A stretch of DNA of 64,000 nucleotides from NCBI GenBank assembly GCA_050084515.1, contig CM114271.1, positions 16,306,001 through 16,370,000 on the forward strand, in the 5' to 3' direction. This document shows positions 27,249 through 51,300 of this stretch, piece after piece. The notes below the pieces were generated by a model. That model saw only the letters and a list, made by a program, of their open reading frames with translations. It ran no database searches and was not told the origin of the DNA. The stretch comes from Blasia pusilla (Eukaryota). Position 1 is the first letter of the stretch. The number at the start of each line of letters is the position of its first letter. Position numbers and translations under genes: made by a program.

Positions 27249-28700
27249 CTATACGCATCTCGGACATATCCATCGTCTCGTGGGAACTACATCAAGAGGA
27301 GGGGTCAGACATAACATATGCCATCCTTGAGAACAACCATTACATACCAAGGGGTGGTTGCACCCCTCGCAGATCCGCACAACATATACCTCAAGCCTGT
27401 AGGTACCACTGCCAAGCTCGGATCCACTGTCCCGTCCACGTTCGGAAGATGACATGGCGCACAATTGCGCATATGATCCTTCCAAACCCTACCATCTTGT
27501 CCTTCCAACATGAGGGCTCCGATCAGTAATACCTCATGCACACGTAGGATCGTGCGCCCTACAGTGACATCTAGCGTCGTGGGTGCTGCATGCTCTAAAT
27601 ACACGTAATCTCCAGGATAAAACCTCCTAATCCCTGGACAATAACCTCCTCCACGAATGGTTGCGTACCTCAATGTATCTCCATGATGCGCAATAGCAAA
27701 GTTCTCAAAGGCCATAGGCATAACTCTACAAAAAATCTCCGCCCTTTGTGAACACACTTGTACCCACACATCTGGATCATCAAGATCTAACACCTCCGCC
27801 ATGTCACGTTGAATCGCTGCAGGTAAATCTGGCTCTCTCCCAAAGAGCAAAAATAAGGTGAAAATGACGCCAAGGATGCTTGCCAACTAAAGCGGTAACC
27901 CATAACCAACGATGGCAACTATAGGTCCCATTCCGTCAACTGTCCCTGATGCAAGCCACACTTGTGCAATCCTCTCTTCACCATCTGTACTACTCTCTCC
28001 GCCAACCCATCCGCCTCAGGATGATCTCTGGACGTGGTGCAATGATCTATCAGCGCCTGATCACACAAGGCCTGAAACTCTCCCTTGAACTCAGTACCTT
28101 GGTCAGTCAACACCTTCGCCGGTGCACCAAAGTGACTAAGCACACGATCTAGAAACGCATAAGCTGTTCCCTTGCTCATCTTGTCGGGTAGTGCCACCAA
28201 CTCTATTCACTTGGAGAAATGCTCTACCATGACCAACACGTACATGTGATGACGCCCCGTCAATGGCAAAGATCCCGCAAAGTCTAAACTCTACCGATAA
28301 CCTAAACCCATAATCAACAAAAGATGTAAGTGGGAGCATTTAAGGATGCTCGCATTCTATCACGTACCATACATCTGGTCACAAATTGTTGTATACGAGT
28401 ATGCATGCCGCGTCACCAATACTAAACCTAGAGTTAGCTGTAAGTATGCTTTACTCCAAAATGCCCCAACTCCTCATGGGTATGTCGCACTACACGTGCT
28501 CGCTGGGAAGGATGAGGTGCCACTCATATCCTATCATCTCCTCATACCCGCAAAATATGATTCCCCTCCCACCTGAACCTCCTGGCTCTCTGTAGGATCC
28601 GATCCCGCTACCTAGCACTCACTCTGCTCGCTATGACGCCAGTGCGTAAGAACTCCACAACCTCCACATCATCATGGATATCACAACCACCTCTCGCCTC
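27249..28700 (-). pseudogene. Element X integrase with C-terminal PHD finger (frameshifted)
   Basis: LTDQGTEF, ADGLAERVVQ, GDYVYL, VCNGCSQGWHMLCLTPPLDVVPTRRWICPRC. Confidence 0.85.
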
Positions 28701-28899
28701 CTCACCGATCTCCGGATCCAAAGACTTATCATCCAATCCCACCATTGAGTCATCACATGCGACTGATCTACCATATTCAACAATCAAAGATAGGCAGATG
28801 CATGCCAACCGAGCACCATCTCCTCATCACTCTCTTCGTGCCATCGAGCTCCTGTGTCGTCTCTCTGACTCGGACATGGGTTACGACTCAACCCATATG

Positions 28900-30310
28900 C
28901 ATCCTATTTCAACCGACCTAGCCTATGAACCACCTCAAACTCATACTCATGTAGTAATAGAGCCAACGTGGCAAGCTTTCTTGTAAGCTTGGCGGACTCC
29001 ATCAACCACTTCAACGGCTGATGATCAGTGATAAGTGTGAAAGAGTTGCCGAATAAATAGCACATGAAATGTGCCATGACCCACATTGGAGCCAAGCACT
29101 CTCCCTTGTAAGAACTGTATTTTGCCTTTGCAATGTTGTTCAATCAGTTCGCGTAAGCCACAACGAACTCCCTCTCCTCGTTATCCCTCTGAGTAAGCAT
29201 TGCTCCTAGACCCAACATGCTCCAATCCGTATCTAACTCTGTAATGGGCGACCCCTAACCGCTCTCGGTAAAATGGGTGAGGACGTCAACCTGTCCTTGA
29301 GCTCTTGAAATGCTTGCTCCTGATCATCTCCCCACAACCAAACCTGATCAAGTCTCGTCCACAAGGTCAAAGACTTTGCGATCGCATTTAAACCCGTCGA
29401 TAGAAGTTCGCCAGTCCAAGAAACGCTCAGACTCGACTCACATCTGTAGGGCGTGGAATGTGCGCAATAGCCGCCACCTTTATCTAATGAATGCGTAACC
29501 CACTTGGGTATATAGTGTGTCCCAAGTACTCAATCTGCTCCTAAAAGAATCTGCACTTGCCTGGATGTAACTTCAGTCCATGTAACTGCAATCGCCGAAA
29601 CACCTCCTCTAGGCGTCGCTCATGCTCCTCAACCGTGGAGCTGAAGATAAGAATATCATCTTTGTAACATTTTATAAAATCCAAACCAGCCAGAATCCTA
29701 TCCATCACTCTGTGAAACTCCGTAGGCGCGTTCTTCAACCCAAATGGTAAGAACCGCCATTGATACAAGCAATCTCTCCCGAACGTATCTATCCCCTAGA
29801 ATGTTGTCTTCTCCTTGTCCTCCAACCTGATAGGAAGCTGATGATAGCCAACACGGAGATCTAAAATATTGAAGATCTTTGCATGCCCTACTGCATCAAA
29901 GATCTCCTCTGGAGTAGGCATGGCGTACTGATCTGATCTCGTATGTCGGTTGATAGGACGGTAATCTCCACACATCCGCCTATCCGTCCAATTGCCATAT
30001 ATATCCTTCTTCGCCGGCATGATTGTGGCAGATGCATACTCCCCATGTGATAACTCCATAAGTCCTGCCTCCAACAAGTCTTGATTTCCGCTCTGAATCA
30101 AGGCTCACTCCATATCAGAATACCCGTAGGGTCTACGAAAGATCGGCGTATCACTAGCCAACTCAATCCGTATCCTGGGACCCTTCAGCGTACCCAAGTC
30201 TCTCATACCGAAGGCAAAACAACTAACATGCCCTATCAAAAACCTATGAACTTGCCGTCGCTCTCCTCCTATCAACTTGAGACCTATCACGGGCTCCCAA
30301 GTCTCCATCG
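28900..30310 (-). pseudogene. Element X reverse transcriptase/RNase H
   Basis: RMCGDYRPIN, LDLRVGYHQ, LPFGLKNAP, CYKDDIL, TDHQPLKWL. Confidence 0.9.
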
Positions 30311-30703
30311 TGATCTCACTCAGAGAGGGCGCAACCTCTAACTTTGGTTGCTATGTAGCAACCCTAGCCACCTCGGCAACATCCACTCCACTCTGACCTC
30401 CTACCCCATGCTCCACATCCAAAAAATGAACATGTGGTTCTTTGGCCGCCTTCGTACTCTCTGCTCGAACGACGTCCCAGGAAGTCCATGGGTGCCTATC
30501 TCTCCTCGTCCCGCCCCCAGCCAATGCCTATATAGACCCAATGGTCCAACTCGTGGACATGACGGCATGAATGACACTCGCATCCGTCTTCGCTCAACCA
30601 TACCTAGGCTAACTATCCATGTGAGACAGTTGAGATCCATTGCCTGCCCCAAAATGTGTCTCCAAGATGCCTCAGTCATACTTGGCACCGCCGTAGTACC
30701 CGT

Positions 30704-32124
<1,421 letters not shown>

Positions 32125-32128
32125 CCGT

Positions 32129-32990
32129 AGCGAACCCCATGGCGCGCTCGCGCTCATCTGCTGTAGGCTTCTCCTATGCTCGGGTTACCTCATCCCTAAT
32201 CATGCTTGGCCCTCCCTGATGAAAGGCATGGGATGTTGGGAAGCTCACCAACGTAGATAAGGTTGCCCCCACTCCCCCACCCTATTGGCCATCGCCAAAG
32301 GTGATCTTTCATCCCGCGTCACCACTTGAGATTGATGCCCTAAGCCCAAAATAGCATCCACTGTCAGATGTGGGGCTCTCTGGACTCCATCGTATGCTCA
32401 ACTCAGTACCTCTAATGGTATCAGGTTCGTCCACCATAGTCGTGGACGATGGGCGCGTGATCCAACTCTTGCTGCATCTAACAACACAACAGGTCCCAAC
32501 CAGGACCTCATCTGATGCACACTCGTCAACACACGTGCACAAGTGTCTCCCAACAATGGCACGCTCTCCAAAATTTATGCCGGAGAATATGTCTGACTCT
32601 CCTGCAAGTGTCGCACTACTCGTAGCATCTCCCAAAATATCCTTGACCTCGGATCCTGCAATCCAAACCTTCGGCCAACTTATGAATGAGCATGACATGG
32701 CCATCCAGCAATCACCAAATGAATGGTGCCAACTTTATCCAGATCCTGCGCCCCCACCAAAGAGATATCGGTGGGTAATGTATGCTGATATCCTCGTACT
32801 GCAGATACCAGAAACAACTCAGGATACCTCTGGACCAATCTCGCTACGTGACGTAATGATACTCGTTGTGCGGTCTCATCTCTCTCCGCATAAAGGTACT
32901 GATGCACCTGTATGCCCGCCTGCAATACCGGTGCCAATATTGTGATAATCCCTCCGAAGAGATCTAACACCCTAACACCCTCCTCTGGAC
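32129..32990 (-). pseudogene. Element X DNMT3-like C5 cytosine methyltransferase domain (3' part continues at 30590-30703)
   Basis: VRVLDLFGGI (motif I), YAERDE (II), DI (III), LVIAGWPC (IV); RHILGQAMDLNCL (motif X) in ORF 30401-30688. Confidence 0.85.
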
Positions 32991-33299
32991 ACTGCCATAC
33001 AACGAGGGTATCCATTGGGATCAACGTCTCCACTTCAGGGGCCCGATCGCCACCTGACTCTCGCTACTCTGGGATAAAGGCATGACTCCACCCCTGCCTC
33101 ACGAGGTGGTTGGCACTCCTCTGTAGCTCTTGAGTCGTATCCCACAATGGTAAAGAGGTCTCGCCAACATGGGAAGAGGCACCCGCTATGGCCTGTCTCT
33201 CCGTGGGACTATCCGCTACTCGGACATCCTGTGCATGTGCATTCCCCTCCAACAGCTCTCATGACCAGCTTACGCTACTTGTGAAAGCTGCCAACGTGG

Positions 33300-33813
33300 T
33301 GTCATGTCTTTTAGGATAGATCGGTGGGATCTAATAGAGCGCCTTCATGAGTAGTGGAGGACACGCCCAGTAGGTCGAGGGTGACCTGCTGAGGCCCTTG
33401 GAAACCTGAGATAGCAGGTTTCCCCTTCGTTTCGGCTCATTTGGAGCCATATTGAGGAACTTACTATTTTAGGTAAGTACCATTTTGAGTATATGATCGA
33501 CTTACTATTTTTGGTAAGTGGCCCTTGACCTCCTACATCAAGTCAAGAGCCAAGGAGGTGACTTGAGAGAATAGGTTACCATGGAGAGAGCTTGGGAGAG
33601 GAGAGGGGTATACCTCAAGGAGAGAGAGCTTGAGAGCTCATTCTTTCTTTGTTGAACCTCTTGGCATGAGGCGGCGGAGCTATGGTACCTTGCCTTGTGA
33701 GTGTAACCCAAGCCTCTCATTAGGAGAGTGGGTTTGGTTTGACATGAGAGAGAGTGCACACCTTTGAGAGCTATGGTGTGAGATGGTGGAGAGAGAGATT
33801 GGATCTTACTTTA
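33300..33813 (+). repeat. V terminal repeat A1 (514 bp)
   Basis: Direct repeat of 42963-43476; about 9 substitutions and no indels by eye. Confidence 0.95.
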
Positions 33814-33828
33814 CAAAGAGAGAATGAG
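33813..33828 (+). promoter_or_regulatory. Putative self-priming primer-binding site of V
   Basis: ACAAAGAGAGAATGAG is complementary (15/16 plus one G:U) to CTCATTCTTTCTTTGT at 33637-33652, about 28 nt after TATA at 33609. There is no TGG tRNA-type PBS. Confidence 0.7.
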
Positions 33829-35559
33829 AGAATGAGAGAGTGAGAGAGCTTCATGGGGGAGCTCGCTGGTCACTCGCTGTTTTTGCAGGTTGGGGACCGT
33901 GTTCCCCGTTCAGCGGCTCATGGGAGTGCTCACCGGAGCAAGGGCTGCTTTCATTACTCTTTGCATTTGCCGATTTTTCGTGTGGAAGAGTGGCGCGCGG
34001 AAGCGCTGCCCAATTTCTGATAGGGATTGAGTATGGGGGCGGGTTGCCCCATGCTGGTGCTCTCGGGAGCACCATGTAGCTTGCTGATATGTATTTTTAC
34101 AGATGTTACATTTTCGTTGGGAGAAATCAGCGCGGGAGCGCTGCCGAATTTTGTGTAGGAGAAAGAGACATTGGGCTTTACGACAGTCCCCGTCAGTTTT
34201 TACTGAAATTTTCAATTCTAAATATTTTTTGATGATAGCGTAGATCATGAAGCTGTGCACGCTGTGCAACAAATAGTGCACAATTTGGAGTTGCGAGCAA
34301 AAAGTTATGGGCAATCTTATAAAGCTGCCATTGCTAGGCGATTTTTAGGGTTAAATCGTGCAAACCCTAAATCAGCCGCCACACCGGCGGTGGTCGTTGC
34401 CATCATAGTCACCGTCACCGTCGACGGTCAACCGTCACCGTCATCGGTCGGCCGTCACCATCAGCGGTCAACCGTCACTGTCAAGGGTCCACCGTCCATT
34501 GTCCACCCTTTAGGTGCCATTGCCGCGATTACGGAGTGGAGGGTCTTCCATGACGTTCGTTGATTCCTTGACTTGCGTCGCCACCACGTACTTTGTTTTG
34601 GCCGCCACCGTCATCGCAGTTTCTTCACCAACCAGTGAAGGCAGATGACCTCCGGTTATGGTGTTTGAGTTTTGATTTCATCTTTGCTATGTTGTGATTG
34701 GTAGCCGCCGGCGGCGATCGAGTATCGCGGTCGAACGCCCGTAGCCGCTAACGCGCCGCCGATTACCGCGCCCGTGCCGCTCGGGCGCACCGCACCATCT
34801 AGATCGCGGAGCCGCACCGTCATTGTGGAGCAGAGTGTGGGATTATTATTGATTGAGGAGGGTATGCCGAGTGCCATCCCACCATCGAGTGCCGCGGCGG
34901 TTCGTAGCCGTTGCGTCGCCGCAAACGCCGCGACCGTTCAATGGGACCGCATTGTCTATCGAGGAGTTTTGAGCAAGCATCGATGCGGGAGGAGTATGAC
35001 TTGCTGATTGGAGGAGTTGTCTCCACGATCGAGTTGGGGTCGAGATTTGCGATTCTTTGAGGAGCGACATCGACATGTGTTCAGGGTTACCCATTCTGGT
35101 CCTTTACCCTGCACATGTGAGGAATTCTGGTAGTTTATTTGGGGATATTGGGTGTGTGGATGCTGAGAGCATCATTTATGTATGTGGTTTAGGGGACATA
35201 GACCTGTGTGGGATGTCCAGAGTTGAGGGTAGGTTGTCGATGAGATGATAGCCTGGTCGATTTGCCGCACCATGCCGCGTGTTGCCGCACGTTACACGTC
35301 TCGGGGAGAGAGAGTGTAGATCGAGTGCCGCATGTTTGGGATGAGTGATTGAGGGATTCCTCACGAGGTTCAGAGTGATCGGGTGAGAGGGGCACGAGGG
35401 TCATCACGGAGTCTGTTCGGGACTTTGAGAGGCGAGGTGGTGAACCCGAGAGTAGCTCTAGAGGTTTTACGCGGAGTGGCGCGAGGTTTCGAGGGTCTCC
35501 ACGTGAGGGACCACCTCGACCTCCTTCTGTGTCATCGTGAGACGAGGGAGAGGGTGTAG

Positions 35560-36900
35560 AGGAGTTTGTGAGCACATCGCCACACATTGTGAGTGTTCCT
35601 ACCAGTTGGGCGTACGAGATGAACGACCGGGGTAGAGGACCGCGTAGGTTTTTAGGTGCAGTAGGCACGATTGAGTTGCACGATTTTATAGCAGAGTTTA
35701 GGAGTTGGTGCGACTCCTAGCGGGCCAGGAACTCTAGAGAGTTCAACCCGTTTACAGCATGGAAATGTATGTTCTAGCATTTAGAGTGGGCGCCCATGGA
35801 CGATTACCATGAGTTCTCTCACAGATATGCATGTGAGATCGAGGCGTGGAGGCTCTACTATGACCCACATTATGTGTTATGGACGGAGCCATTCCCAGAT
35901 GAGGAGGAGGAGTCAGGAGAGGCTATTGCCTCTTCCACTAGTGACGTTTTAGGAGGGGTCACTCGCACGGGAGCAGTTGCACCGTCTAGTCGGGTTCGTC
36001 CCAGGTTCAACCCTGTAGTTGAGTTCTTTGCTGATTTGAGGGCGAGCTACCAGGGGGTACGGACGGAGAAGTTGCGGAGCATCCACGACTTCCAGAGGCG
36101 CTCGGGTGAGAGTTTGCGTGAGGCTTACACTCGCTTGCGCCGGTTGATCAACGTCACTCAAGGGGTGACAGAGGCTCAGGCTATCCAGTCATGGTATGCG
36201 ATACTGGACCGGACCCTGCGGACACGGGTGCGGGAGGGGGTGCTTCTTATGAACACCTCCCCTACGTTGAGAGATGTTTTTAGGACCGCCGAGAACATTG
36301 AGCGCAACATGGCGGAGGAGAGCGTAGCCACCATGGGTTCTGGCGAGAGCGATCCACGATTGTCGCACCACTGCGGCAAAGAACGTGGACCGAGATGGGT
36401 CGGCAGTGGCACCACGAGCTCGGGGGGGAGGATACCGGGAGGCCGTGCCCACGAGACTGCGCCTTCATATGCGGCTCAACAGCGATCGCCTACTATTACT
36501 TGTTGGTCATGTGGTGGAGCCCATCATCGCCGCGATTGCACTCGTCGGTCACGGGCGTGTGCCTCAAAGATGGAGGAGGAGATGGTCTTTGCACCAGGAG
36601 GTTATCGGTGTGACTATTGTCGAGGTATGGTCATACACGCCCAGGTGTTTTAGTTTACATCTGAGTTACGTCTGGACCGAGGCCCAGAGGGCACCAGAGC
36701 GAGTAGCCGGTTCGGGTGGGCCTAAAGATCGTGCTCGGTGGTCCCGTTGGGGGGAGGAGCTGGAGTTTCCGGACAGGGTGGTGGAGTTGCCCGTGGAGGA
36801 GGTAGAGTACCACCACCTAGACGCCGCCGAGGGAGATGCCGGACGTGAGGCCGGGATGGGCGCTCGATACAAGCGACTACGAGGTCGATTGCCGCTATGG
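35560..36900 (+). pseudogene. Element V gag with zinc knuckles
   Basis: ORF 35796-36653: QRRSGESLREAYTRLRRL (gag major-homology-like), CWSCGGAHHRRDC, CDYCRG. Confidence 0.8.
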
Positions 36901-38310
36901 CATTGAGGTTACCGATGCCGGATCCGTGGCATCGACATCATATGGAGCAGCCAGAGATCCTGGAGGATCCTGGATGGATGTCGGGGTTGCCGGATGGAGG
37001 CGCCGCCGCGGTTGTGCGCGTGGAGCGCCGCAGAGTTGGATCCCAGCGGGGAAGCCGAGAGACAGACTAGGCTTCCTCAATCTTTCACGTTGTCCGAAGC
37101 GATGAGGACCCCATCGATGGGTCCTCATCAAAGTTCCTGGAGAGTTGGTAATGTTGTTGGTGTGCAAGCACGGAGGGCGATGGCAGAAGCGAGTGCAAAG
37201 ACTCCTATTGTTGATGCTCAGGAGGGGCATGTGTCGAGCACGTTGTTGGGGGCGGCCACCGTTGTGTACCGCACTCCTTTATTTCCTGCTTCCGATGTTG
37301 TGACGTTGGGAGGTACGCCCGCCGAGGCTTTTCGGCTGGCCGCTTCACTATGTGAGCGCGGAGTTGGAGTTCATGCATCACGTTCAGAGGTGATTGTAGA
37401 GGAGGTGATGGACCTGCCCTTGGAGCGGATGCTCGGGCCGTCCACGTCAGATTCATGGCAGTGCGATCGCTAGGATGGCGGAGATGCCCGCTAGACCCGC
37501 GATAGAGCATGCCATGGCTTCTCCTGGTGTTGTGTTCTTTGGATAATCGAGGAGAGGTCTTCCGGTTGGTGAGTCCTCGAGGTAGAGCTTTTAGTCTTGG
37601 CAGCCGGCGTCTTGTTGATTCGGGCGCAACCCTTGATGTTGGGGAAAGCGTCATTCAGAGGATTGGGCTTGCGAGCCGATGTGGAGTGTTGTCCATTTCG
37701 GATATAGACATCCTTGGGTGGAGCGAGTACCACCACGATATATCACCGACAGAGGTCGTGGTGAGGATTCGCCGGGACATCCTGAGATGAGTCCGTGGTG
37801 CGCGCCAAGGCGATAGTGATCGATGTTGAGTCCTCGACGTCTTGGTTGGTGGAGCGATGTTATACCCGATGGGGTTTTCCTGGATTCTTGGGAGGAGTCG
37901 GCGTCCCTGAGACCAGGATGGCGTCGGTGATGGGCGCCTTAGCTCATTATTCGTTCGATTCACAGTGCGATGATCGAACGGCCAGAGAGATGGCGACCTT
38001 AGCAAAGCATTTAGCAAAGTGCCATCACTTGGCCTAGTGATTTGATTGAGGACATGTCCATGCAGAGGATACTCCCGTTCTCGACATTTCTATGGAGAGG
38101 AGTGTTATGGTAGTGCATCATTCCGTGGAGGAGAGGTGCATTTGTGGGGCTCGGACCGAGGAGCTTCAACAATTGGCAGATCTTGACGTCGCGGCACAGC
38201 GTGGAGCGAGGCATTTGCACGAGCGTGCGCGGGTCCGAGGAACCCGAGGTAGCGGGAGTGCTATGATGACACCCTTGGATACTACACCCATTGTGTGGTG
38301 TACCGGAGGA

Positions 38311-39270
38311 GGGTATTCGAGTGTTAGATCTCTTTGGAGGGATTAGCACGGGTTAGCTCTGCTTTTGCAGTGCAGGAGTGCGAGTCTGGCAAAGACTTGT
38401 ATGTGGAGAGTGATGATGTTACGAGGCGCGTCTCACTACGATATGTGGCGCAATTACGCCCTCGTTTTCCCGACTTATTGTCTGCGTCCGTAGTACAGGG
38501 TACGAGTTCCCTCACAGAGGATATTTTGTTGTTGGGGCGCAGGACTTAGAGCGGTAGGGACCATTGATTTGGTCATTGCCGGTTGGCCATGTCGGGCCAA
38601 TCGAGTGTTGGACGAGGCAATGGTTCGCCGACACTCGGTCAGGTTGTTTTGGGAGATGTTGAGGGTCTTACGGCAGTTGCAGGAGCACCAATCTCGTTCT
38701 CCAGCCTACATTCTGGAGAATATGCCGATCTTAGGAGACTCCAGGTCACGGGTCGTGACGAGTGCTCATCAGGTGCGTGCCTGGATTGGCCCAGCAGTGT
38801 TCTTGGATGGGGCGAGTGTAGGTTCTAGAGCCCATCGCCCGCGTCTATGGTGGACCAACTTGGTGCCCCAGCGGTGTTATGGAGGGCGTATGCGAGAGTA
38901 GAGCGCCCCTCCCCTTTGTTAGTGGATTCCATTCTGGATCCAGGTCGTCGATCACAGGCAATGAGGCACGATGATCGACCACCGCTGACTGTGGTCAACA
39001 GGGTAGGCAGGCCACGGGCAGCCTTGCCCACGTTTGTGAGTTTTCCCGCTTCCTATGCATACAAGGAGGCCGGTCCTGGCTTGGTTTGGGATGACCAGGT
39101 TCAGCGGTTGGTGGAGCCCAACGCCGACAAGAGAGAGCGAGCGATGGGATTTCCCACAGGAGTGACGGCAGTACCATCAGTGTCAGAGGCATCACGACGC
39201 CATGTCTTTGGTCAGGCGATGGACCTGAACTACTTGACATGGATCCTCAGCTTGGGAGTGGCTGAGCAGC
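38311..39270 (+). pseudogene. Element V DNMT3-like C5 cytosine methyltransferase domain
   Basis: GIRVLDLFGGIS (38311), LVIAGWPC (about 38570-38592), LFWEMLRV, AYILENM (VI), RAHRPRLWWTN (VIII), RERAMGFPTGVT (IX), RRHVFGQAMDL (X). Several frameshifts. Confidence 0.9.
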
Positions 39271-39596
39271 GTCGTATGAGATCGCGACAGATCACAGCGG
39301 TTGCGTTGGTGAGCCCCATGCCTACCGAGACGGTGGAGGTAGTGGCTGGGGGCGAGACCCGAGGAGATCTACGCACCAGGGGAGATCGGGAGAGACACCC
39401 TTGGACTTCTTGGGATGTTTTGAAGGTATGCAAGGAGATGATAGCCACAACATCGAGCGCGGTTTCGGGCACTGCACGTGGAGGAGATCACAGTTTGCAG
39501 TTGGCTGCAGGAGAGCGGCCGAGTGTTTTTGTTCGAGACGGGGTTGCACCATAGCAACCACCGATACCCGCGCCGGAGAGTCCTACTGTAGTCACG

Positions 39597-41030
39597 ATGG
39601 AGACTTGGGAGCCAGATATGGGCCCTAAGTTGACAGGAGGAGAGCGGCGCCGAATACATCAGTTCCTCAGGAGTTATAGGAGCTGCTTTGCGTTTAGCAT
39701 GGAGGATTTGGGTACGCTGAAGGGACCGGGGATCCGCATTGAGTTGTCGAGTGATATGCCGATCTTTCGACGACCCTACAGGTATAGTGATATGGAGAGG
39801 GCTCTGATTAAGAGTAGGAGCCAAGACTTGGTCGGAGCAAGACTAGTGGAGATGTCGCATGGGGAGTATGCATCTGCCACTGTCATGCCCGCCAAGAAGG
39901 ATGTGCATGGCAACTAGACGGATAGGCGGATGTGTGGGGATTACCGACCTATCAATCGGCAGACGAAGTCCGATAGGTATGCCATGCCCACCCCTGAGGA
40001 GATCTTTGATGCGATTGGTCACGCAAAGGTCTTGATTCATTGATTTATGAGTGGATACCATCACCGCCTGCTATCGATTGGAGGACAGGCAGAAGACGGC
40101 ATTTTGGGGCATCGATCCTCACGGGAAGGATTGTTTGTACCAGTGGCGGTTCTTACCATTTGGGTTAAAGAACGCCCCGGCTGAGTTTCAGAGGGTCATG
40201 AATAGGATCTTGGCTGGTCTGGATTTTGCTAGGTGTTATATTGATGACATCGTAGTCTTTAGCGCCACGGTTGAGGAGCATGAGCAACATCTAGAGGAGG
40301 TGTTTCGACGATTGCAACTACATGGGCTGAAGCTACATCCACCAAGTGCAAGTTCTTCTACGACCAGATTGAGTACTTGGGTCATACGATATACCCAGGG
40401 GGCCTTGGTGTTCAGCAGACGAAGGTAGAGGCTATCTCACGCATTCCACGCCCTACAGATGTGAGCCGTGTTCGCGCATTCATGGGATTGGCGAACTTCT
40501 ATCGGCGATACGTCAAGGGATTCAGTTTGATTGGTCTTGGCCGACCTTGCTCACCAAGGTGGATCACGAGTGGCATTGGGGGGATGAGCAGGAGCGAGCA
40601 TTTCAGTTGCTCAAGGACAGGTTGACGTCCGCACCCATCTTGAGGAGACCGATCAGGGGGCGTCCTTTCCAGTTGCACACAGATTGGAGCATGTTGGGGC
40701 TTGGAGCGGTGCTCACCCAACATGATGATGAGGGTAGAGAGTTCGTGGTGGCTTACGCTAGCCGCTCGAACAACGCTGCAGAGGCGAAGTACAGCTCGTA
40801 TGAGGGTGAGTGCTTGGTCATGGTGTGGGTCGCCACATTTTAGGTGTTACTTATTCGGCAACCCCTTTACTATCATCACTGATCATCAACCACTGAAGTG
40901 GTTGATGGAGTCCGATAAGCTTACAGGGAAGCTTGCGAGATGGGCTCTGTTGTTGCAGGAGTATGATTTTCAGGTGGTACATAGACCTGGAATGCTCAAC
41001 CAGGATGCAGATGGGTTGAGTTGTAACCCA
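39597..41030 (+). pseudogene. Element V reverse transcriptase/RNase H
   Basis: YASATVMPAKKD, LPFGLKNAPAEFQRVM, CYIDDIVVFS, FMGLANFYRRYV, LHTDWSMLGLGAVL, YSSYEGECL, TDHQPL. Confidence 0.95.
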
Positions 41031-41219
41031 TGCCCGAGTCAGCGAGATGCAACTGGAGCTCGATGGCATGAAGAGAGTGATGAGGAGTCGGTGCCAAGAT
41101 GGCACGCGTCAGCCTATTTAGGCATGTTGGCTATGGAGAGCCAGAGTGTGGAGACTTCGATGGCGAGGTCTAGTGGAGAGTCTTTGGATCCCGAGGCCAG
41201 TGAGGACACGACAAGTGGC

Positions 41220-42659
41220 CGAGATATTCATGATGATGGAGTAGTCTTAGAGTACCTTCGTACTGGCAGCCTTGCGAGCACCATGGATGCTAGAGAGCGG
41301 GATCGGATCCTACAGCGGGCCTGACGGTTCCGTTCGGAGGGGACACATGTTTTGAGGGTTTGGGAGGATGGCAGAGTACGCGTAGTGCCGCATCCTTTGC
41401 AGAGAGCACGACTAGTGCAGCATGCCCACGAGGAGTTGGGTCACTTTGGGGTGAAGCGGACGTATAGCTTGCTCCAGATTCGAGATTGGTGGCGAGGCAT
41501 GCAGATCGCGTTCAGCAGCTTTGTTGCCAGGTGCATGGTGTGTGATCGGGTCGAGCATCGTTCTATGCTCCGACTCCACGATTGCATCCATTACCGATCA
41601 TGGGCTTAGGTATAGATGGAGTTTGGATTTTGCAGACCTTTGCCCTTGACGGAGCGTCACACGATCGTTATGTGTTGGTGATGGTGAGCACTTCTCGAAG
41701 TGGATCGAGTTGGTTGCATTGCCCGACAAAGCAAGTGAGGGAGTAGCTTATGCCTTCCTTGACAGTCTTTGTCGAGTCATTATGGCGCACCAACCGAGGT
41801 GTTGATGCACGGTACCGAGTTTCGCGGTGAGTTCAGGCCTTGTGTGATCAGGGCGATCGACCACCGACGATTTTCGCGAGATCATCCCGAGGCGGATGGA
41901 TTAGCGGAGAGAGTTGTGCAGACGGTGAAGAGGGGTTTACGCAAGTATGGCTTGCAGAGAGGTCACCTAGGAGATTGGGACCTCCAGTTGCCATGGTTGG
42001 CGATGGGATACAGATTCAACAGGCATGCATCCTTAGCGTCTTTTTCACCGTACTTGCTACTTTATGGCCGAGAGCCAGATTTTCCTGCGGCCATTCGTCG
42101 AGATGCTGGTGAGGTGCTGAACCTTGATGACCCAAATGTATGGGTGCGAGCATGTTCTCAGAGGGCTGAGTTATTTCGGAGAGTGATGCCCATGGCGTTC
42201 GAGAACTTGGCGATTGCACAGCATCGGGATACGTTGAGGTATGCGACTATTCGAGGTGGTGGTTATCGACCAACTATCCGGAGGTTTCATCAGGGAGATT
42301 ATGTCTATTTGCAGCAGACGGCACCAACGACGTTGGATGTGACTGCAGGGCGCACTATCCTGAGAGTGCATGACATTTTGCCATCGGGTGTTCTCTTGCT
42401 GGAGGGACGCGATGGTATGGTATGGCATGACCATGTGCGTAATTGTGCGCCATGTCACCTTCCTAACATTGATGGTACAGTAGATCCGAGCTTAGTAGTA
42501 GTTCCTGCAGGCTTGCGTTGTATGTTGTGTGGTTCTGCCCGTGGTGCGGCCACGATGCTAGTCTGTGATGGGTGTTCGAGAGGATGGCATATGGCATGTT
42601 TGATGCCACCTCTCACTAGGGTTCCTCAGGGACGATGGATGTGTCCCAGATGTACATAG
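41220..42659 (+). pseudogene. Element V integrase with C-terminal PHD finger
   Basis: HAHEELGHFG...CMVC (HHCC), ADGLAERVVQTVK, GDYVYL, CMLCGSARGAATMLVCDGCSRGWHMACLMPPLTRVPQGRWMCPRC (C4HC3). Confidence 0.92.
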
Positions 42660-42826
42660 AGAAGGTAGTTCTACATTCCGACTTGTGTCTATGACATGGA
42701 TGACAAGGAGGCGACTAACGATGGGGCCACATAAGCACCCGGCCTTCTTGCTCTTAGCGTCCGAGAGATGTATGTCATGGTAGGTAGGGATAGATGGCTA
42801 TCTGGAGTTAGAGGGACCTAACCACC

Positions 42827-42839
42827 AGCTAGGGGGGCG
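42827..42839 (+). promoter_or_regulatory. Polypurine tract of V
   Basis: AGCTAGGGGGGCG directly precedes repeat B1. The same motif precedes B in X (27173-27185) and W (58505-58517). Confidence 0.8.
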
Positions 42840-43604
42840 ATTGGAGATATTTTGGTTCTTCGTTATTTGGATGCCATGAGTTAGCATGGGATCATGCGTG
42901 TTTGTGTGTGTGTTCGGTGACAGCGATGTATGTTGTGTAGCGATGTGTATGCGCACGATAGCTGTCACGTCTTTTAGGATAGATCGGTGGGATCTAATAG
43001 AGCGCCTTCATGAGTAGTGGAGGACACGCCCAATAGGTTGAGGGTGACCTGCTGAGGCCCTTGGAAACCTGAGATAGCAGGTTTCCCCTTCGTTTCGGCT
43101 CATTTGGAGCCATATTGAGGAACCTACTATTTTAGGTAAGTACCATTTTGAGCATATGATCGAATTACTATTTTTGGTAAGTGGCCCTTGACCTCCTACA
43201 TCAGGTCAAGAGCCAAGGAGGTGACTTGAGAGAATAGGTTACCATGGAGAGAGCTTGGGAGAGGAGAGGGGTATACCTCAAGGAGAGAGAGCTTGAGAGC
43301 TCATTCTTTCTTTGTTGAACCTCTTGGCATGAGGCGGCGGAGCTATGGTACCTTGCCTTGTGAGTGTAACCCAAGCCTTTCATTAGGAGAGTGGGTTTGG
43401 TTTGACATGAGAGAGAGTGCACACCTTTGAGAGCTATGGTGTGAGATGGTGGAGAGAGAGATTGAATCTTACTTTAATTGGAGATATTTTGGTTCTTCTT
43501 GTCTCGTTGTTTGGATGCCATGAGTTAGCATGGGATCATGCGTATTTGTGTGTGTGTTTGGTGACAGCGATGTATGTTGTGTAGCAATGTGTATGCGCAC
43601 GACA
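42840..43604 (+). repeat. V 3' terminal block B1-GC-A2-B2
   Basis: B1 42840-42960 and B2 43477-43604 are direct repeats differing by a 7-bp indel and a few substitutions. A2 equals A1. Junction GCACGATA-GC-TGTCAC. Confidence 0.95.
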
Positions 43605-44380
43605 GTGGTCACAGACTCGTCTCGTGATTGACCTCCTCGTCTTGCAAAGTGCACGAGTAATTGACTCATCGGGCCGTCACTTGACCGCCACCCTGACCGA
43701 TAAGCAATGGTCTCCTCCCAAAAGTCAAGGATGAATCCTAGGGGATATAACACTGTACTCCCCACCAACACATCGTACAACTCAATTGGTGTCATAATCG
43801 CACGTGTGCTCACGTGTGCGCACCATAGCACTATCCGTCGCATGCTCTGGCTGGACTTTGAAAACTATCTCCTGTCGAGTCATATATTGCGTTGGTGACA
43901 CGCCCCCAATCAAGGTCTGTATCTGGAAGGGACAAGTCTCAATGTTGGCCTTCCGTGACCCCAACGCTAAACACGATGCCTTCCCTAACATCAAGGGCTG
44001 CGCTCCCGAATCAAGTAGAAACGCGTACGGGTGGTATACTATCCCTGTCGGACTAACCAAGAAAAATACTCCAACTCGATTATTCAATAACAATACTCCA
44101 TGTGTCACCAGGGCTCGCTCTATGGCCGGTCGAGCTGACATATCTACAAACTTCTCCGCCGCCGCATGCCATGACTCTATGGGGGACGTTCCGAGCACCG
44201 GATGTGAGGGCAAGTCCACCACCTCCTCAACTACCTCTGAACAAGAAGCAGTCACCTCTCCACGTTCACACAATGTGGCGACCAGCCGGAACACCTCAAT
44301 TGGTCCAACTCTCAATGATGCCGACTCTATGGCGGAAAATAGCGGAGTCTAGCTCACTCTGGTGACCAACTCCAACACTA

Positions 44381-44440
44381 TGGTTGACACTGACTCCACT
44401 CGAGCCACGACTGTGGCTCGAGTGGAGTCAGTGTCAACCA
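44381..44440. repeat. Perfect 28-bp-stem hairpin (4-nt loop) in X
   Basis: TGGTTGACACTGACTCCACTCGAGCCAC-GACT-GTGGCTCGAGTGGAGTCAGTGTCAACCA. Confidence 0.95.
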
Positions 44441-47007
44441 GTGATGTCGACATACCTGTCTGACCTGTAGGCACCGTTGGTCATTGAGGCACCATCGATG
44501 GTGTGTGTAGTGCCTCCGACAATGTGAATGACTGTGGAACCCTAGCGTGCCGCCCAACGGTCTCCTCCGTTGGGTCAATCTCAACTCCACCTCTAGATGG
44601 CTCAATGCATCTTGCAACACCACGAGTCACTACTGCAGCCGCCTCAACCTGAGCTGCACTACACATAAACCCCATACTAGCGAGATCCTCACCCGGGTCA
44701 GGGTAAGAGGTAGAAGTTGGAGCTACACTAGCTACTCGCGGCTCCATGCCTTCCCTGAGCAGCATCATCGTCACGGCAGCAATCCTCTGCTCTCCAACTG
44801 ATCGATGCGTGAGAGAAATGCTGGCTTTGGTGCTCTTGCTCCATCTCTTGTGGCTGGTGGTGGTCCTCTACCACCACGTCCAAGAAGAACTCCCTGACCT
44901 TCTCCAGGACGACCGCCCCGAGGCCCTTGGCATACCTCTGGACGTGCCTCTGGACGAAGGTCGAAACATCTATCCCTAGTCTGACCATATCTCTGGCAAT
45001 AGTCACACTAGTACTGTGGTGGGGCCATCCTCTGTGGTTCCTGACCAAATCTGAGGCGCTCGTGGTCCTCTCCCATGTTGTGTGGAGTCTCTCTGCATAT
45101 GGGCCTCTCCATACGTTCAACATGACAACATCGGTCCTTGCTGGGTAGCATATGTAGGTACGGGTCGTTGCCTCTTAGGCTCACAATACCCGCCTTGCTC
45201 TCTGGGCACACTTGCCCGCTTCCGTGGTACTGGTGCTCGTTGTGGCACTTGTGGGGTCACCGTCGCTCGTGGACCCGTCGACTCCCGAGAAAATCCACCG
45301 GTCATTACATGCTCCTCACTCATGTTGAGCTCAATACTCTCAGACAACTCAAAGATCACCTTCAATGTGGGCTTCGTTGTGTGAATCAGCACCGCATCTT
45401 GGACTCTCCTCTGTAGTTCTCGGTCCAGAATCCCATACCAATAAAAGATTGACTGCGTCTCAGTTATTCCACACGTAGCAATGATCAGCCTCCTCACGCA
45501 TCTGAATGTCTCTCTCAGATTCTCACCCGGCCGTCGCTGGAAATCTTGTAGACTCTTCAGCTTGTCGGTGAGTACGCCCTAGTAGCTCTTCCCCAACTAT
45601 CGGAAGAACTCCACTGTGGGACTGAAGCTGGGTGGCCCTCTACCACCAGAGGTCTTTGCCACATCGTCTGTCTCACTGCCCTCTTCTCCATCTAGTCTCT
45701 AGGCTGATGGTGTGGGTCTCTCTCCTCTCACGATCCCATCATATGCCTCACGACCACTAGTGGACACATACCCTGGAGCCCAATACATCCTCCACGCATC
45801 GATCTCTACTGAATATAGTGATTGAAACTCCATGAAATCATCCATCGGAGGACCCTCCAATTGTTGGAACAACCCCTTCCACACCATGAAAGGGTTTAAC
45901 CGTGTCGGGGTTCTTATCTCTTGGAAGTCGCACCACGTATTGAACTCTTGGATATCTAAGTCGATGGTGCCCATTGCACCCGAGAACCGACGCATGCCCC
46001 GATGGCCCATGTTGTCCATCTCTTGCCAAGTGATACCGCCTTCGTCTGCGATCTTGTCACCAGACCCAGTGTCTAGTGATGACGATCCAGCCATGGATGG
46101 ATGTCGAGGTAGCTCCTCACTCGTAACCCCTCGGTATCTCACTCCACTCCGTGGCACATCACTACTACTGCTCGCACTACCCCATTCTTCCAAAGCTTGG
46201 AAGAACGCCGTGATGACAACTCCGTCTCATCCGCTCAAGCACTCAGACTCACCGAGAGTCTCCCATACTCCTCACTAGCTCACATATGCTAACGTCAATC
46301 CCGTGATGACACACCCAACCTCACGCACACTCAACACTCAGGCTCACCATGAGCCTCCCACTAACTCATCTAACCTACCGACATGCTCGGGTCATACATG
46401 CGACCCCTACTCAGAAACCGCCATATATCCACCAATATGCTACATATAAAAAGAGTCTACACTCATCACCATCATTGCACCCATCTAGCACCAGCTACTA
46501 CTCGATATCCATGTCACATCTGAGTAGCCGATAGGCCGAGATCTATCGTGGATAGGGCGTAGGAGCCAGCGGACTATCTTGAGTGTAACTTTGTCCCACG
46601 GTGTTGGATGAGGTCGAGGATAGGTCCATTGTGTCAGGAACGTTGTTTCTGACAACTTTCATGTTGAGGTCTTTTACAGTCGGGTGACTTGTTGACTAGG
46701 TCACCCGCCCCTGATAACCTGTGTGCGCAGATTACCAAGTGAAGGGCTATTTTTAGGGGAAGAACCTTTTGGCTCTTCTCCTAAAAATAGCCAAACATCT
46801 TCTTCAACATGAGAAAGATGGCTTTCCTAAGCCATCTTTCTCATGTTGGGCCGTTGGAGCACATCCCTTGTATGTGTGTGAGCTAGGACTAGGGTGCTAG
46901 CGTCCGGATTCCTTGATAGCACAGGGTGGACGAGGTTCGATATGCCGATGTAGATTGAGGAGTGGAGTTTTACGCCGGGTGTGCCGTTTTTACTACTCTT
47001 TATTTCT

Positions 47008-47021
47008 ACATGAGAAAGATG
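47008..47021 (+). promoter_or_regulatory. Putative self-priming primer-binding site of Y
   Basis: ACATGAGAAAGATG is the exact complement of CATCTTTCTCATGT at 46833-46846 inside repeat A. In W's copy of A this motif starts about 31 nt after TATATAA. Confidence 0.75.
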
Positions 47022-47150
47022 TCAGGGGGCTGGTGGAAATTCGTTGTTTGCAGGTAGGCAAGCGAGTTGCCTTGGTCGGGAGCCCCTGGAGACATGTGTG
47101 TGACGTTTTGTGTGTCATTTTTCTGTTCGGAAGGCCGTGCGCAGAAGCGC

Positions 47151-48331
47151 TGTCGTATAGTAAAATCAACCAGTGTGTAAACTCCTTCGTCATTAAGTGT
47201 TAGATAGAGTTTCATTAGTATTAAGTAAATTGGCTTAGAAAAAAGAGATTCTTATGTTTAAACCTCTTTATGGTACCTCTTTTATGCAGGCCCAACTTTA
47301 GGAAAAGGAGGTAATAAATAAAAGATGACTTTATCAAAGTAAAGTAGTTGCTTTAATGAAAAGCAAAAGTAGTCTTGGTTGGTGGCTAGGTTAGTTGGGG
47401 TAATTTGGAAAATATCAAGTGGGTAAAAGAGGATATTTTGGAAGAGATAAGAGGAAATCTACTTGTGTCAAAATGTGATTGGCTAAGCCTTGAGAGGAAA
47501 CCATGTGGCACAAGATAAGATAAGTTCTATTTTGTACTCTTGTGAATCCCTTGTGAGTATATAAAGAGGAGGGACCTTCAAGGGTTCATCACCTTCTATT
47601 CCACATCTTGAGTCTCTCGTGTCTCTCTTGAGTGTATGGCTTTGGGATTGCTTGCTCTTCAAATGAGAGTGGATCACCCCTCTTGGGAGAGTAACTTGAC
47701 CATGGTCTATTCTTCGAGAGATTTCTAGAGTGTGGTGTGTGTGTGTGGGGATGAGAGGTTTGTCACCGTAGAGGAGTTTAGTCATACTAAAATAGCGGAT
47801 GTGTCAAGCATGGATAGGGGTGGAGCACGAGCTGTGCCCGACTTTCCTTTCCTCAATCCTTACCATGTCAAGGTACTTTTTGTAGATAGGCACTGGTTCA
47901 CTCGCTATTTAGTTTATCATTTTGGGGAGGCGTTCATGAACCAGGTCATGCAATCTCCAACTCCGGTGATTCTTCCTATTGTCACATATGGAAGGACATG
48001 GGATTGTACTTTGTATGTCCTTATATAGCGATCCATGGATGTCAATAGGCCTGCTCAAGTAGGGTTTAACACTAGTTGTGCTATCTTCCTCGTGTACAAG
48101 CGTAAAATAGTTTATAGGGATTTTATAGTTAGGAATTTTGGGGTCCGATGTTACGAAGAAGTGATCGCCTCGGCACTTCCATTTGTGATACCTGTCGTGA
48201 GAGAATGGAGAGTGTACATCATAATTTTGTATTGAAAAAGGAGAACTTATTAGAGAGTTCACCTTGCATCGACCGCATCTATCGCAGCTAGAAGGCCCGC
48301 CCTTGCTCGAAGAAAGACTCTCGACACGACA
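47151..48331 (+). mobile_element. Solo unit U2 (TGTCGT...ACGACA, TSD GCGC)
   Basis: GCGC at 47147-47150 and 48332-48335; TATATAAA at about 47558; homologous to U1. Confidence 0.9.
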
Positions 48332-51300
48332 GCGCTGTCCATTTTTCTTAGATTTTGCTGGTGCGGAATGATGGGGGACAGCAGGAGGGTGTCGCGTAGG
48401 TTGTGTTGGCATGAGTAACGTCGTCTTATAGCTCGTGGAATGTTGGGAGTACCCTGGGAGAAGAGTTAGAACTTGCAGCTGCCAGGGGGCTGTCAAGTAA
48501 AGGGCTGGTCTAGGGTTAGGGCGCGGCGGCGACGGGCGCCCTAAACGCGCGCTGGCGGGTATCGGAGGTATCGCCGATGCTGCTAGATGGGTGCAGTGAT
48601 GGTGACCAGTGTAGATTCTTTTCATGTGTAGCATGTTGGTGGATATACGGCGTTGCCGAGTAGGGGTCGTGTGTATGACCCGAGAGAGTGTCGCTAGGTT
48701 AGGTGAGTCAGTTGGGAGGCTCATGGTGAGCCCGAGTGTTGAGCGTGCGTGAGGCCGGGTATGTCATCACGAGATTGATGTTAGCATAGGTGAGCTAGTG
48801 AGGCGTGTGGGAGACTCTCGGTGAGTCTGAGTGCTTGAGCGGGTGAGACAGGGTTTGTCATCACGGCGTTCTTCCAGGGTTCTGAAGAACGGGGTAGTGC
48901 GAGCAGTAGTAGTGGTGTGACACAGAGTGGAGTGAGATACCGAGGGGTTACCAGTGAGGAGCTCCCTCGACATCCATCCGTGACTGGATCGTCATCACGG
49001 ACATTGGGTCCGTGGCGAGATCACGCAGAGCGAAAGATAATACTTGGCAGGAGATGGACGACATGGGCCATCGGGGCATGCGTCGTTTCTCGGGTGCAGT
49101 GGGCACCATCGACTTAGATGATTTTATCCAGGAGTTCGACACATGGTGCGACTTCGAGGAGATACGGACCCCAGACGGTTCAACCCTTTCATGGCATGGA
49201 AGGGATTGTTCCAACACTTAGAGGGTCACCCGATGGATGCCTACATGGAGTTTTGATCACTATATTCAGTAGAGATCGATGCTTGGAGGATGTATTGGGC
49301 TCCAGGGTATGTGTCCACTAGTGGTCGCGAGGCATATGATGGGATTGTGAGAGGAGAGAGACCCACACCATCAGCCCGGAGACTAGATGGAGAGGAGGTC
49401 AGTGAGACAGGCGATGTGGTAGAGACCTCTGGTGGTAGAGGGCCACCTAGCTCCAGCCCCACAGTGGAGTTCTTCTGACAGTTGGGGAAGAGCTACCAGG
49501 GCGTACGCACCGACAAGCTGAAGAGTCTAGAGGATTTTGAGTGACGATCGGGTGAGAGTCTGAGAGAGGCATTCACACGCATGAGGAGGCTGATCATTGC
49601 TACGTTTGGAGTGATTGAGGCACAGTCAGTCCAGTATTGGTACGGGGTTCTGGACCAAGAACTACAGAGGAGAGTCCGAGATGCGGTGCTGATTCACACA
49701 GCGAAGCCCACATTGAAGGTGGTCTTTGAGTTGTCTAAGCGTATTGAGCTCAACATGAGTGAGGAGCAGGTAGTGACCGCTGGATTTTCTCGAGAGTCGA
49801 CGGGTCCACGAGCGACGGTGATCCCATAGGTGCCACTGCGAGCACTAGTACCACGGGAGCGGGCCAGTGTGCCTAGAGAGCAAGGCGGGTACCGTGAGCC
49901 TATGAGGCAACGACCCGCACCTACATATGTTGCCCAGTAGGGATCGATGTGGTCTTGTTGGACGTGTGGAGGGGCCCATAGGCAGAGAGACTGCCCACAC
50001 CATGGGAGAGGACCACCAACGCCTCCAATTGCTCAAGAGCCACAGAGGATGGCCCAACCACAGCACCAGTGTGACCATTGCCACAGATATGGTCACACTA
50101 GGGATAGATGTTTTGACCTTCGCTGAGGGGCACGTCTAGAGGTAGGCCGAGGGCTTGGGGGCAGTCGTCTTGGAGGAAGTCGGGGAGTTCTTCCTAGACG
50201 TGGCGGTAGACGACCACCACCAGCCAGAGGAGATGGAGCAGGAGCACCAGAGCGGGCACTTCTCTCACGCATCGATCAGTTGGAGCAGAGGATTGCTGCC
50301 ATGACGATGATGCAGCTTGGGGAAGGCACGGAGCTGCGAGCAGCTAGTGTGACTCCAACTTCTATCTCTTACCTTGACCCGGGTGAGGATCTCGCTAGTA
50401 TGGGATTTATATGTAGTGCAGCCCAGGTTGAGGCAGCTGCAGTGATGACTCGGGGTGCTGCGAGAGGCACCGAGCCATCGAGAGGTGGAGTTGAGATTGA
50501 CCCACAAGAGGGGACCGATGGGCGGCAGGCCAGGGTTCCACAGTCGTTCACATTGTCAGAGGTACTACACACACCATCGATGGTGCCTCGACGACCAGCG
50601 GTGCCTACAGTTCAGGCATCTACGTCGACGTCACGAGGAGTTGGAGTGACAACTCCTATGCCGACTCGAGTGGAGTCAATTTCGACCATAGTGTTGGAGG
50701 TGGCCACCAGAGTGAGTCACACTCCGCTATTTTCCGCCATAGAGTTGGCGACGTTGGGAGTTGGACTAGTTGAGGTGTTCCGGTTGGCCGCCACGTTGTG
50801 TGAGTGTGGAGAGATGACTGCTTCTTGTTCAGAGGTAGTTGAGGAGGTGGGGGACTTGCCCTCAGAGCCGGTGCTTGGGACGTTCCCCACAGAGTCATGG
50901 CATGCGGCGGGCGAAGTTGCTAGATATGCCACTCGACCGCCATCAAATGAGCGATGGTGACACTGAGTAGTGTTACTGGATAACCGAGCTTGAGTATTTT
51001 GCTTGGTTAGTCCGACGGGGATGGTACACCACCCGTAGCGCATCCTACTTGATTCGGAAGCGCAACCCTTGATGTTAGGGAAGGCGGCGTGTTTAGCGTT
51101 TGGGTTACGAAAGGCCAACAGTGAGCCTTGTCCCTTCCAGATATAGACCTCGATTGGGGGCGTATCACCCACTCAGTATATGACTCGACAGGAGATTGTT
51201 GTCAGAGTCCAGCCAGAGCATGCGACGGAAAGTGCTATGGTGCGCGCACGCGTGCGATTACGACACACCGTAAGTGCGATGTCTTGGTGGGGAGAACCGT

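Follow-up and report, generated by a model that had tools for sequence, protein, structure and literature searches.

Retrotransposons that encode a cytosine methyltransferase of the DNMT3 type within Pol have been published from a dinoflagellate and a charophyte alga. According to the published description, KnitGypsy-Dnmt3 of the charophyte Klebsormidium nitens combines Gypsy-type domains with a DNMT3-type domain in the Pol open reading frame (ORF) and is flanked by repeats in the arrangement A-coding-B-A-B (de Mendoza et al. 2018, PMC5890265). In the relevant parts of the later literature, such elements are referred to as 'streptophytes (Gypsy-DNMT3)' (PMC12344493; preprint 10.64898/2026.05.21.726589). 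The present study deals with a stretch of 64,000 nucleotides from Blasia pusilla (assembly GCA_050084515.1, contig CM114271.1, positions 16,306,001 to 16,370,000 of the forward strand), the whole of which is termed the window, and with four copies of a methylase-bearing retrotransposon located therein, designated V, W, X and Y. These are dead copies belonging to two families, very probably of one Ty3/Gypsy-like lineage with the order gag(CCHC)-protease-DNMT-reverse transcriptase (RT)-RNase H-integrase-PHD, and they represent the KnitGypsy-Dnmt3 kind of element in a land plant.

The comparison with KnitGypsy-Dnmt3, as far as that element is described in PMC5890265, revealed three common properties: an unrearranged DNMT3-type domain in a Gypsy-type Pol with protease, RT, RNase H and DDE integrase, the A-coding-B-A-B layout, and purifying selection on the methylase, with a published Ka/Ks below 0.2 as against 0.13-0.28 in the window. 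The two differ in the host, which is a charophyte in one case and a land plant in the other, and in abundance, few copies being described from K. nitens whereas the family found here is very abundant. SymbioDIRS-Dnmt3 of Symbiodinium, again according to the description in PMC5890265, likewise contains a DNMT3-type domain in Pol and A-coding-B-A-B repeats, and its two domain orders within Pol can be compared with the two database clades reported below. It specifies, however, a tyrosine recombinase, in contrast to the DDE integrase (rve) and the target duplication of the elements in the window. The kind of element is accordingly already published (PMC5890265), but the extension of its range to land plants is real, and dozens of relatives are already present in public bryophyte annotations. 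A literature search, which did not cover subscription journals and supplements, yielded no paper reporting Gypsy-DNMT3 in bryophytes or naming the Marchantia models; bryophyte copies may be included in the supplementary tables of PMC5890265 and PMC12344493.

The methylase domain and its family

A DNMT3-like domain is present in all four copies, well beyond chance, at or near the coordinates that a previous sequence-only reading of the window had proposed. The positions of the domains and of the conserved motifs of V, which were located by a script, are as follows; P0009 is an intact database polyprotein of 2188 amino acids.

38311-39270, plus strand: DNMT3-like domain of V, split over three frames (translation, tblastn with P0009)
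61941-62930, minus strand: DNMT3-like domain of W, in a single frame with two stops; GWPCQ, ENV and RPR intact
51740-52668, plus strand: DNMT3-like domain of Y, with 97% protein identity to W; the element is cut off inside the domain
32129-33015, minus strand: main part of the DNMT3-like domain of X, with a tail at 30590-30718 beyond a 1.4-kb insert
38324-38341, plus strand: LDLFGG of V
38578-38592, plus strand: AGWPC of V
38713-38727, plus strand: LENMP of V
38830-38853, plus strand: AHRPRLWW of V
39135-39152, plus strand: ERAMGF of V
39210-39224, plus strand: GQAMD of V

Motifs I (FxGxG), IV (Pro-Cys), VI (ENV), VIII (RxR), IX and X follow each other in the canonical order of C5 cytosine methyltransferases, and the succession of motifs listed in the sequence-only reading was found in all four copies, with ENM in V and ESV in X as variants of motif VI. 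The division into two families was also borne out, as the DNA of W, Y and X agrees to 86-97% and that of V matches these three to 66-77%. The Pfam profile PF00145, which had been suggested as a check, gave a divided result. With a gathering score of 22, it clearly detected the domains of W (35.4 bits, E 1e-8) and Y (positions 51740-52654, plus strand, 35.6 bits), but V remained below the threshold: PF00145 was not found at E<=0.01 in any of its three raw reading frames, and one of its four frame pieces yielded a sub-threshold match (13.4 bits, E 0.05).

The affiliation of the domain was deduced from comparisons with solved structures. A search with W against all PDB chains resulted in 47 distinct sequences at E<=1, the top 29 of which are all DNMT3A, DNMT3B or DNMT3C (from E 9.8e-9), with DRM2 next at E 0.014 and M.HhaI at 0.04. 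Moreover, a family profile (alignment A1) was generated from 30 family sequences that are 31-76% identical to P0151, the nearest intact relative (68% identical to W), and was searched against the solved enzymes with the following results.

DNMT3A: E 8.7e-29
DNMT3C: E 1e-26
DNMT3B: E 2e-26
Tobacco DRM: E 2e-18
DRM2: E 2e-15
M.HhaI: E 2e-9
M.HaeIII: E 1e-8
DNMT2: E 2e-7

No match to DNMT1 was obtained at E<=0.01 in this profile search of solved enzymes. The profile is collinear with DNMT3A over three blocks, and the motif order of the domain is therefore not rearranged as in DRM. Plant DRM2 and tobacco DRM share a related catalytic core with the window domain (profile E 2e-18 to 2e-15) but, owing to their rearranged motif order, align with profile positions 43-173 only. 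The predicted fold of P0151 (mean predicted local distance difference test score, pLDDT, 89.8) was applied to a Foldseek search, in which the matches listed were all catalytic domains of DNMT3A/B/C, the best with an E of 3.7e-19 and a target template modelling (TM) score of 0.82. Across the 30 aligned sequences there is no variation, or conservation of at least 90%, at the catalytic Cys-Gln, at the Glu of ENV and at the Arg-x-Arg.

Accordingly, the sequence search of the PDB, the profile search and the fold comparison all favour DNMT3, in agreement with the DNMT3-like character that had been claimed for the domain. The animal enzymes DNMT3A/3B/3C provide the best match in sequence, profile and fold, and resemble the window domain in their collinear motifs and in the short target-recognition region between motifs VIII and IX. 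They differ from it in that the window domain lacks PWWP and ADD and is located inside a retrotransposon polyprotein, and the identity in the fold alignment is 20-23%. Neither PWWP nor ADD was found by Pfam in V, W or the database polyproteins, which contain the catalytic domain only; DNMT3s devoid of identifiable companion domains are mentioned in the relevant part of PMC12344493. By these comparisons, the domain is classified as a stand-alone catalytic domain of a putative C5 cytosine methyltransferase of the DNMT3 type with unrearranged motif order.

The elements, their repeats and their relatives

The genetic organization of the elements was deduced with the aid of P0009, in which Pfam detects CCHC, Asp_protease, DNA_methylase, RVT_1, RNase H and rve in this order. 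By means of tblastn, P0009 was aligned to W with the protease at 63758-63270, the methylase at 62987-61965 and the region from RT to integrase at 61605-58986. In V and X, the same search detected the methylase followed by the region from RT to integrase, the order being that of W, and gave no protease match. The fixed place between protease and RT that had been claimed for the methylase can thus be followed on both flanks in W and directly before RT in V and X, whereas Y ends inside the domain at position 52668. The elements and their parts are as follows.

33300-43604, plus strand: V, a complete element inserted into X, with TG start, CA end and a 4-bp target duplication GTGG (33296-33299 and 43605-43608)
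33300-33813, plus strand: repeat A1 of V, matching A2 with 9 of 514 bases different
36501-36539, plus strand: CCHC zinc knuckle of the V gag, CWSCGGAHHRRDC, seen by eye in the translation, without a Pfam match
37611-37631, plus strand: protease active-site motif LVDSGAT of V; the P0009 protease maps to the equivalent place in W
39645-42242, plus strand: RT, RNase H and integrase of V (P0009 matches)
42519-42653, plus strand: PHD finger at the C-terminal end of the V integrase (PF00628, 38.7 bits)
42840-43604, plus strand: 3' repeat block of V, composed of B1 (42840-42960), a 2-bp GC spacer, A2 (42963-43476) and B2 (43477-43604)
57758-64000, minus strand: W, whose 5' part extends beyond the window (tblastn with P0009, repeats, Pfam)
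57758-57896, 57899-58364 and 58364-58504, minus strand: 3' repeats B2, A2 and B1 of W
About 58587-58721, minus strand: PHD finger of W
About 59364-59855, minus strand: integrase of W (PF00665, 47.6 bits)
60925-61605, minus strand: RT of W, placed by tblastn of P0009 only
63270-63758, minus strand: protease of W (tblastn with P0009)
46512-52668, plus strand: Y, with A1 (46512-47005), a 1.2-kb insert (47151-48331), gag, protease and the methylase, in which it is cut off
27035-46493, minus strand: X, truncated at either end, with V (33300-43604) and a 1.4-kb unit (30704-32124) inserted in it

The gag and protease regions of V and W gave no Pfam match at E<=0.01, the protease being placed by tblastn and by its DSG motif. 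W shows the target site of V without the insertion (63213-63233). For the A repeat at 46512-47005, an assignment to the 5' end of X was considered as well, but its orientation rules this out and assigns the repeat to Y.

The repeat layout A-coding-B-A-B is complete in V, with the 3' B-A-B block also present in W and the 5' A in Y. Ordinary replication of long terminal repeat (LTR) elements does not yield this arrangement. The two identical LTRs of Ty3/Gypsy elements are replaced in V by A alone at the 5' end and B-A-B at the 3' end, but the succession protease-RT-RNase H-integrase, the TG..CA ends and the 4-bp target duplication (GTGG) are those of the Ty3/Gypsy group. Likewise, the elements are DIRS-like in their repeat layout only, as they contain a DDE integrase and the 4-bp duplication. 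Scans of the window for tRNA and Rfam families gave nothing, and no primer-binding site was identified adjoining A1. The internal joint of B1 and A2 reads ...ACA GC TGT... in both families, a perfect 8-base palindrome (V 42955-42970; W about 58360-58370) that resembles a head-to-tail junction of the element ends (..CA and TG..) into which two additional bases are inserted. A run of AGGGGGG is located directly upstream of B1 in V (before 42840) and in W (before 58504).

The integrases of V and W both terminate in a PHD finger. Chromoviruses are Ty3/Gypsy elements with a chromodomain at the C-terminus of the integrase, and they are similar to the elements of the window in that a chromatin-reader module is fused to the integrase end; they differ in that the window elements carry a PHD finger instead of the chromodomain and a methylase in addition.

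Among 1.84 billion representative proteins searched, 2961 matched at E<=0.001, of which 203 reached E<=1e-30. The matches listed number 150, and many of these are part of polyproteins of 1500-3400 residues. The 177 matches of similar length include the named species Calypogeia fissa, Sphagnum troendelagicum, S. tenellum, Marchantia polymorpha, M. paleacea and Riccia sorocarpa, and the 47 longer ones comprise 17 gene models of Marchantia polymorpha, one of Calypogeia and two of Sphagnum; examples from M. polymorpha are Mp_4g09160, Mp_8g17980 and, containing RT and RNase H, MARPO_0091s0058. The identity of the named relatives to W is mostly 55-74%, and intact proteins of M. polymorpha, Calypogeia and Sphagnum are among them. 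No K. nitens protein occurs among the named matches, such searches favouring closer relatives. All named relatives are bryophyte with the sole exception of P0171 (46% identical to W), which is labelled as a bacterial metagenome-assembled genome (a Candidatus Obscuribacterales metagenome bin). Since P0171 nests in a clade of eukaryote-type polyproteins, its contig is probably mis-binned. The tree calculated from 190 methylase domains places W and Y in a well-supported clade of 27 rows together with bryophyte sequences; the pieces of V are 60-72% identical to members of the same bryophyte group, compared with 57-58% to W.

The position of the methylase was recorded in 311 database proteins matching the W domain. 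It follows the protease or precedes RT in 49 of them (e.g. P0009) and is located after RT/RNase H or directly before the integrase in 77, typically in the order RT-RNase H-methylase-integrase-PHD (e.g. P0005, P0027 and P0029); the remaining 185 contain too little other sequence for an assignment. The two layouts form separate clades that are connected by one change on the methylase tree, with a support of 99 (FastTree, 190 rows) and 98 (IQ-TREE, random 50-row subset). The tree is unrooted and gives no direction for this change.

Decay, past selection and expression

All copies in the window are pseudogenised by stops, frame breaks or both, as had been stated before. In the P0009 matches of V from methylase to integrase (38545-42242), no fewer than 10 stops and 4 frame changes were counted, the 10 stops all lying in 39645-42242; those of W from protease to integrase contain 9 stops and 2 frame changes. 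Within the methylase domain itself, V shows at least three frame changes, X one frameshift and one insertion, and W the two stops 62610-62612 and 62532-62534, which are shared by Y (TGA and TAG). At the first of these sites X has TAA and the intact relatives have arginine; at the second X has CAG. The proposal of C>T stops as the main cause of inactivation consequently holds for both W/Y stops, but it does not cover the frame changes of V or the frameshift and insertion of X. With X as outgroup, 15 of 32 private changes in W and 20 of 52 in Y are C>T or G>A, a GC-to-AT bias that does not fully account for the decay. Furthermore, A1 and A2 of V differ by 1.75% (9/514), yet its genes are heavily broken. 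This small difference together with the many breaks indicates that V was probably already defective at insertion and was moved by the proteins of other copies.

The traces of selection were examined by the ratio of nonsynonymous to synonymous substitution rates (dN/dS). Between V and W, values of 0.13-0.28 were determined for the methylase (four in-frame pieces, 322 codons), 0.06-0.18 for the region from RT to integrase (five pieces) and 0.27-0.30 for gag/protease (two pieces with estimable dS, the other two being saturated). As dS is saturated, the true V-W ratios are lower, if anything. The methylase ratios of X versus W (0.45) and Y versus W (0.74) are higher, which is expected for copies that diverged partly or wholly after their death. 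From the V-W ratios it follows that the methylase was under selection; the 203 clusters at E<=1e-30 and the catalytic motifs kept in the 30-sequence alignment are further points in favour of the selected module that the sequence-only reading had assumed.

The only host gene found in the window is a permease exon.

5153-5800, minus strand: xanthine/uracil permease exon (PF00860, 99.5 bits)

This exon reaches at most 73% identity to a named plant protein (Calypogeia), followed by Marchantia and Sphagnum (69-71%), ferns and gymnosperms (66-69%) and zygnematophyte algae (57-59%). In a permease tree it groups with liverworts (SH-aLRT 89) on a long branch, which makes this weak evidence; the length of the branch results from the extension of the ORF into an intron. 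Together with the bryophyte origin of the named relatives, this grouping agrees with the land-plant genome suspected earlier, and judged by these sequences the host is a land plant, probably a liverwort.

Sequencing reads were mapped to W at a likeness of at least 90%. From one DNA run, 85,315 contigs were placed on W, their summed word depth amounting to 5,000-110,000, and the element family is very abundant in the same organism. From two raw RNA runs of this organism, 6% and 12% of which were read, 529 and 496 reads were placed on W, nearly all on one strand with the first mate plus; in a usual stranded library, such reads would mean minus-strand RNA, which is sense for W, the library type being unrecorded. 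One read per run is at least 99% alike to W, and 414 and 384 are 90-95% alike. As most of the reads show only this lower likeness, the RNA derives from copies other than W. The W stop at 59808-59810 is private, since another letter is present at 59809 in 50/50 and 48/48 RNA reads and in nearly all of the DNA depth, and 13 RNA reads whose match ends at the catalytic loop carry a sense codon at the first methylase stop of W, Y and X. Diverged relatives are therefore transcribed in the same organism. As a lead only, four air-metagenome runs of one study hold 13%-30% of the sampled words of the W stretch 58581-62930, for which the run search returned four organism labels besides air metagenomes.

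The window as a whole represents a nest of insertions. W was inserted into another Gypsy element, which is truncated at its junction with the 3' end of W.

54290-57757, plus strand: separate Ty3/Gypsy-like element without methylase; Retrotrans_gag at 54712-55479, with protease- and RT-like motifs seen by eye before 57757

A unit of 1.2-1.4 kb is present in two copies of opposite orientation (30704-32124 and 47151-48331) that are 92-95% alike, with TGTCG..CGACA ends and the 4-bp target duplications CCGT and GCGC. The methylase of X is interrupted by one copy, the other being located in the leader of Y; the unit possibly represents a solo repeat of a related family. The region 20000-26000 is AT-rich (30% G+C) and is located between G+C-richer repeats. 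Inverted similar segments were detected at 1-2270 and 25509-27034 (63-73% alike) and at 10952-11637 and 12663-13246 (91-93% alike), the latter pair having the appearance of a fold-back or terminal-inverted-repeat element.

Possible function and origin of the methylase

The methylase may have a function in the replication of the element. The enzyme would be translated as part of the Gag-Pol polyprotein, would remain with the replication complex alongside RT and integrase, and would act on newly made cDNA or on the fresh insertion, so that the new DNA would pass for methylated DNA already resident in the genome; integration would be steered by the PHD finger through recognition of a histone tail. 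Self-methylation of the cDNA is offered as a quite possible, albeit tentative, function. An action on the host genome or the target site instead of the own cDNA, by which flanking chromatin would be marked, silencing would be competed with or transposition would be slowed to mutual benefit, is an unlikely but serious alternative. Options of this type are raised in the discussion of PMC5890265, and the chromatin-reading PHD finger of the integrase as well as the abundance and transcription of the family are in line with them, but the place of the methylase in Pol beside RT fits an action on cDNA at least equally well.

It is improbable that the domain has lost its activity on DNA and now contributes to Pol in nucleic-acid binding or structure, or methylates RNA instead. 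This idea can draw on the K. nitens domain, for which the corresponding passages of PMC5890265 report no methylation in yeast, nor with human DNMT3B, with no firm verdict drawn by the authors, and on the RNA methylation that the same authors raise for an enzyme borne by a long interspersed nuclear element (LINE). On the other hand, Cys-Gln, ENV, Arg-x-Arg and the S-adenosylmethionine-binding motif I are kept across clades that are 31-50% identical, which is hard to explain without catalysis, and the nearest solved relatives are the DNA enzymes of the DNMT3 group, DNMT2 following only at E 2e-7.

Several findings nevertheless weigh against the interpretation of the elements as carriers of a working DNMT3-type enzyme. 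The only bench data for the lineage, the yeast result cited above, are negative, though not taken as a verdict by its authors, and none of the copies in the window can act, as all of them are broken. The placement with DNMT3 reflects the strength of matches to solved structures and not a rooted tree. In addition, the RNA depth is 0.1-5 over the methylase compared with 8-23 over the region from RT to integrase, and the DNA word depth over the methylase is roughly 3-10 times lower too; in view of these lower depths, the domain could be missing, or more diverged, in part of the family.

With regard to the origin of the domain, remnants of a host DNMT3 gene hit by transposons, or a one-off capture in a single copy, would have nothing in their favour but the likeness to DNMT3, and this explanation is refuted by the position of the domain, which is the same with respect to RT in V, W and X and which follows the protease in W, by database proteins joining protease, methylase, RT and integrase in single ORFs, by the 203 matching clusters, by between-family dN/dS values well below 1 and by the location of the domain inside an element bounded by a target duplication. 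An enzyme of bacterial or viral (Dcm- or phage-type) instead of eukaryotic origin is just as remote, as the feature search of a protein atlas that scores phage methylase clusters about equal to the streptophyte cluster comes without alignment or E-value, whereas the profile clearly prefers DNMT3A (E 8.7e-29) to M.HhaI (2e-9) and M.HaeIII (1e-8) and the Foldseek matches listed are all DNMT3.

As a broader and more speculative interpretation, which we regard as possible but doubtful, the DNMT3 methylase, the PHD-tipped DDE integrase, the DIRS-like split repeats and the palindromic B-A joint may all belong to one old Gypsy-like lineage that extends from charophytes into land plants. In this lineage the methylase would have moved once within Pol, in either direction, and in one or more liverwort-like hosts the elements would still be transcribed and would have undergone massive amplification.

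Cytosine methylation is the main means by which plants silence transposons, and a transposon with its own de novo methyltransferase reverses this usual picture. The two fixed positions of the methylase in Pol bear on the question of how such modules are gained and moved, and the combination of a DDE integrase with a DIRS-like repeat layout bears on the replication of these elements. The cases published so far come from organisms, a dinoflagellate and a charophyte alga, in which genetics is hard. Since 17 gene models are present in the model liverwort Marchantia polymorpha, the benefit of the methylase to the element becomes directly testable. If the single old lineage is real, transposon-encoded de novo methyltransferases would be a live part of bryophyte epigenomes that can be studied genetically in Marchantia.

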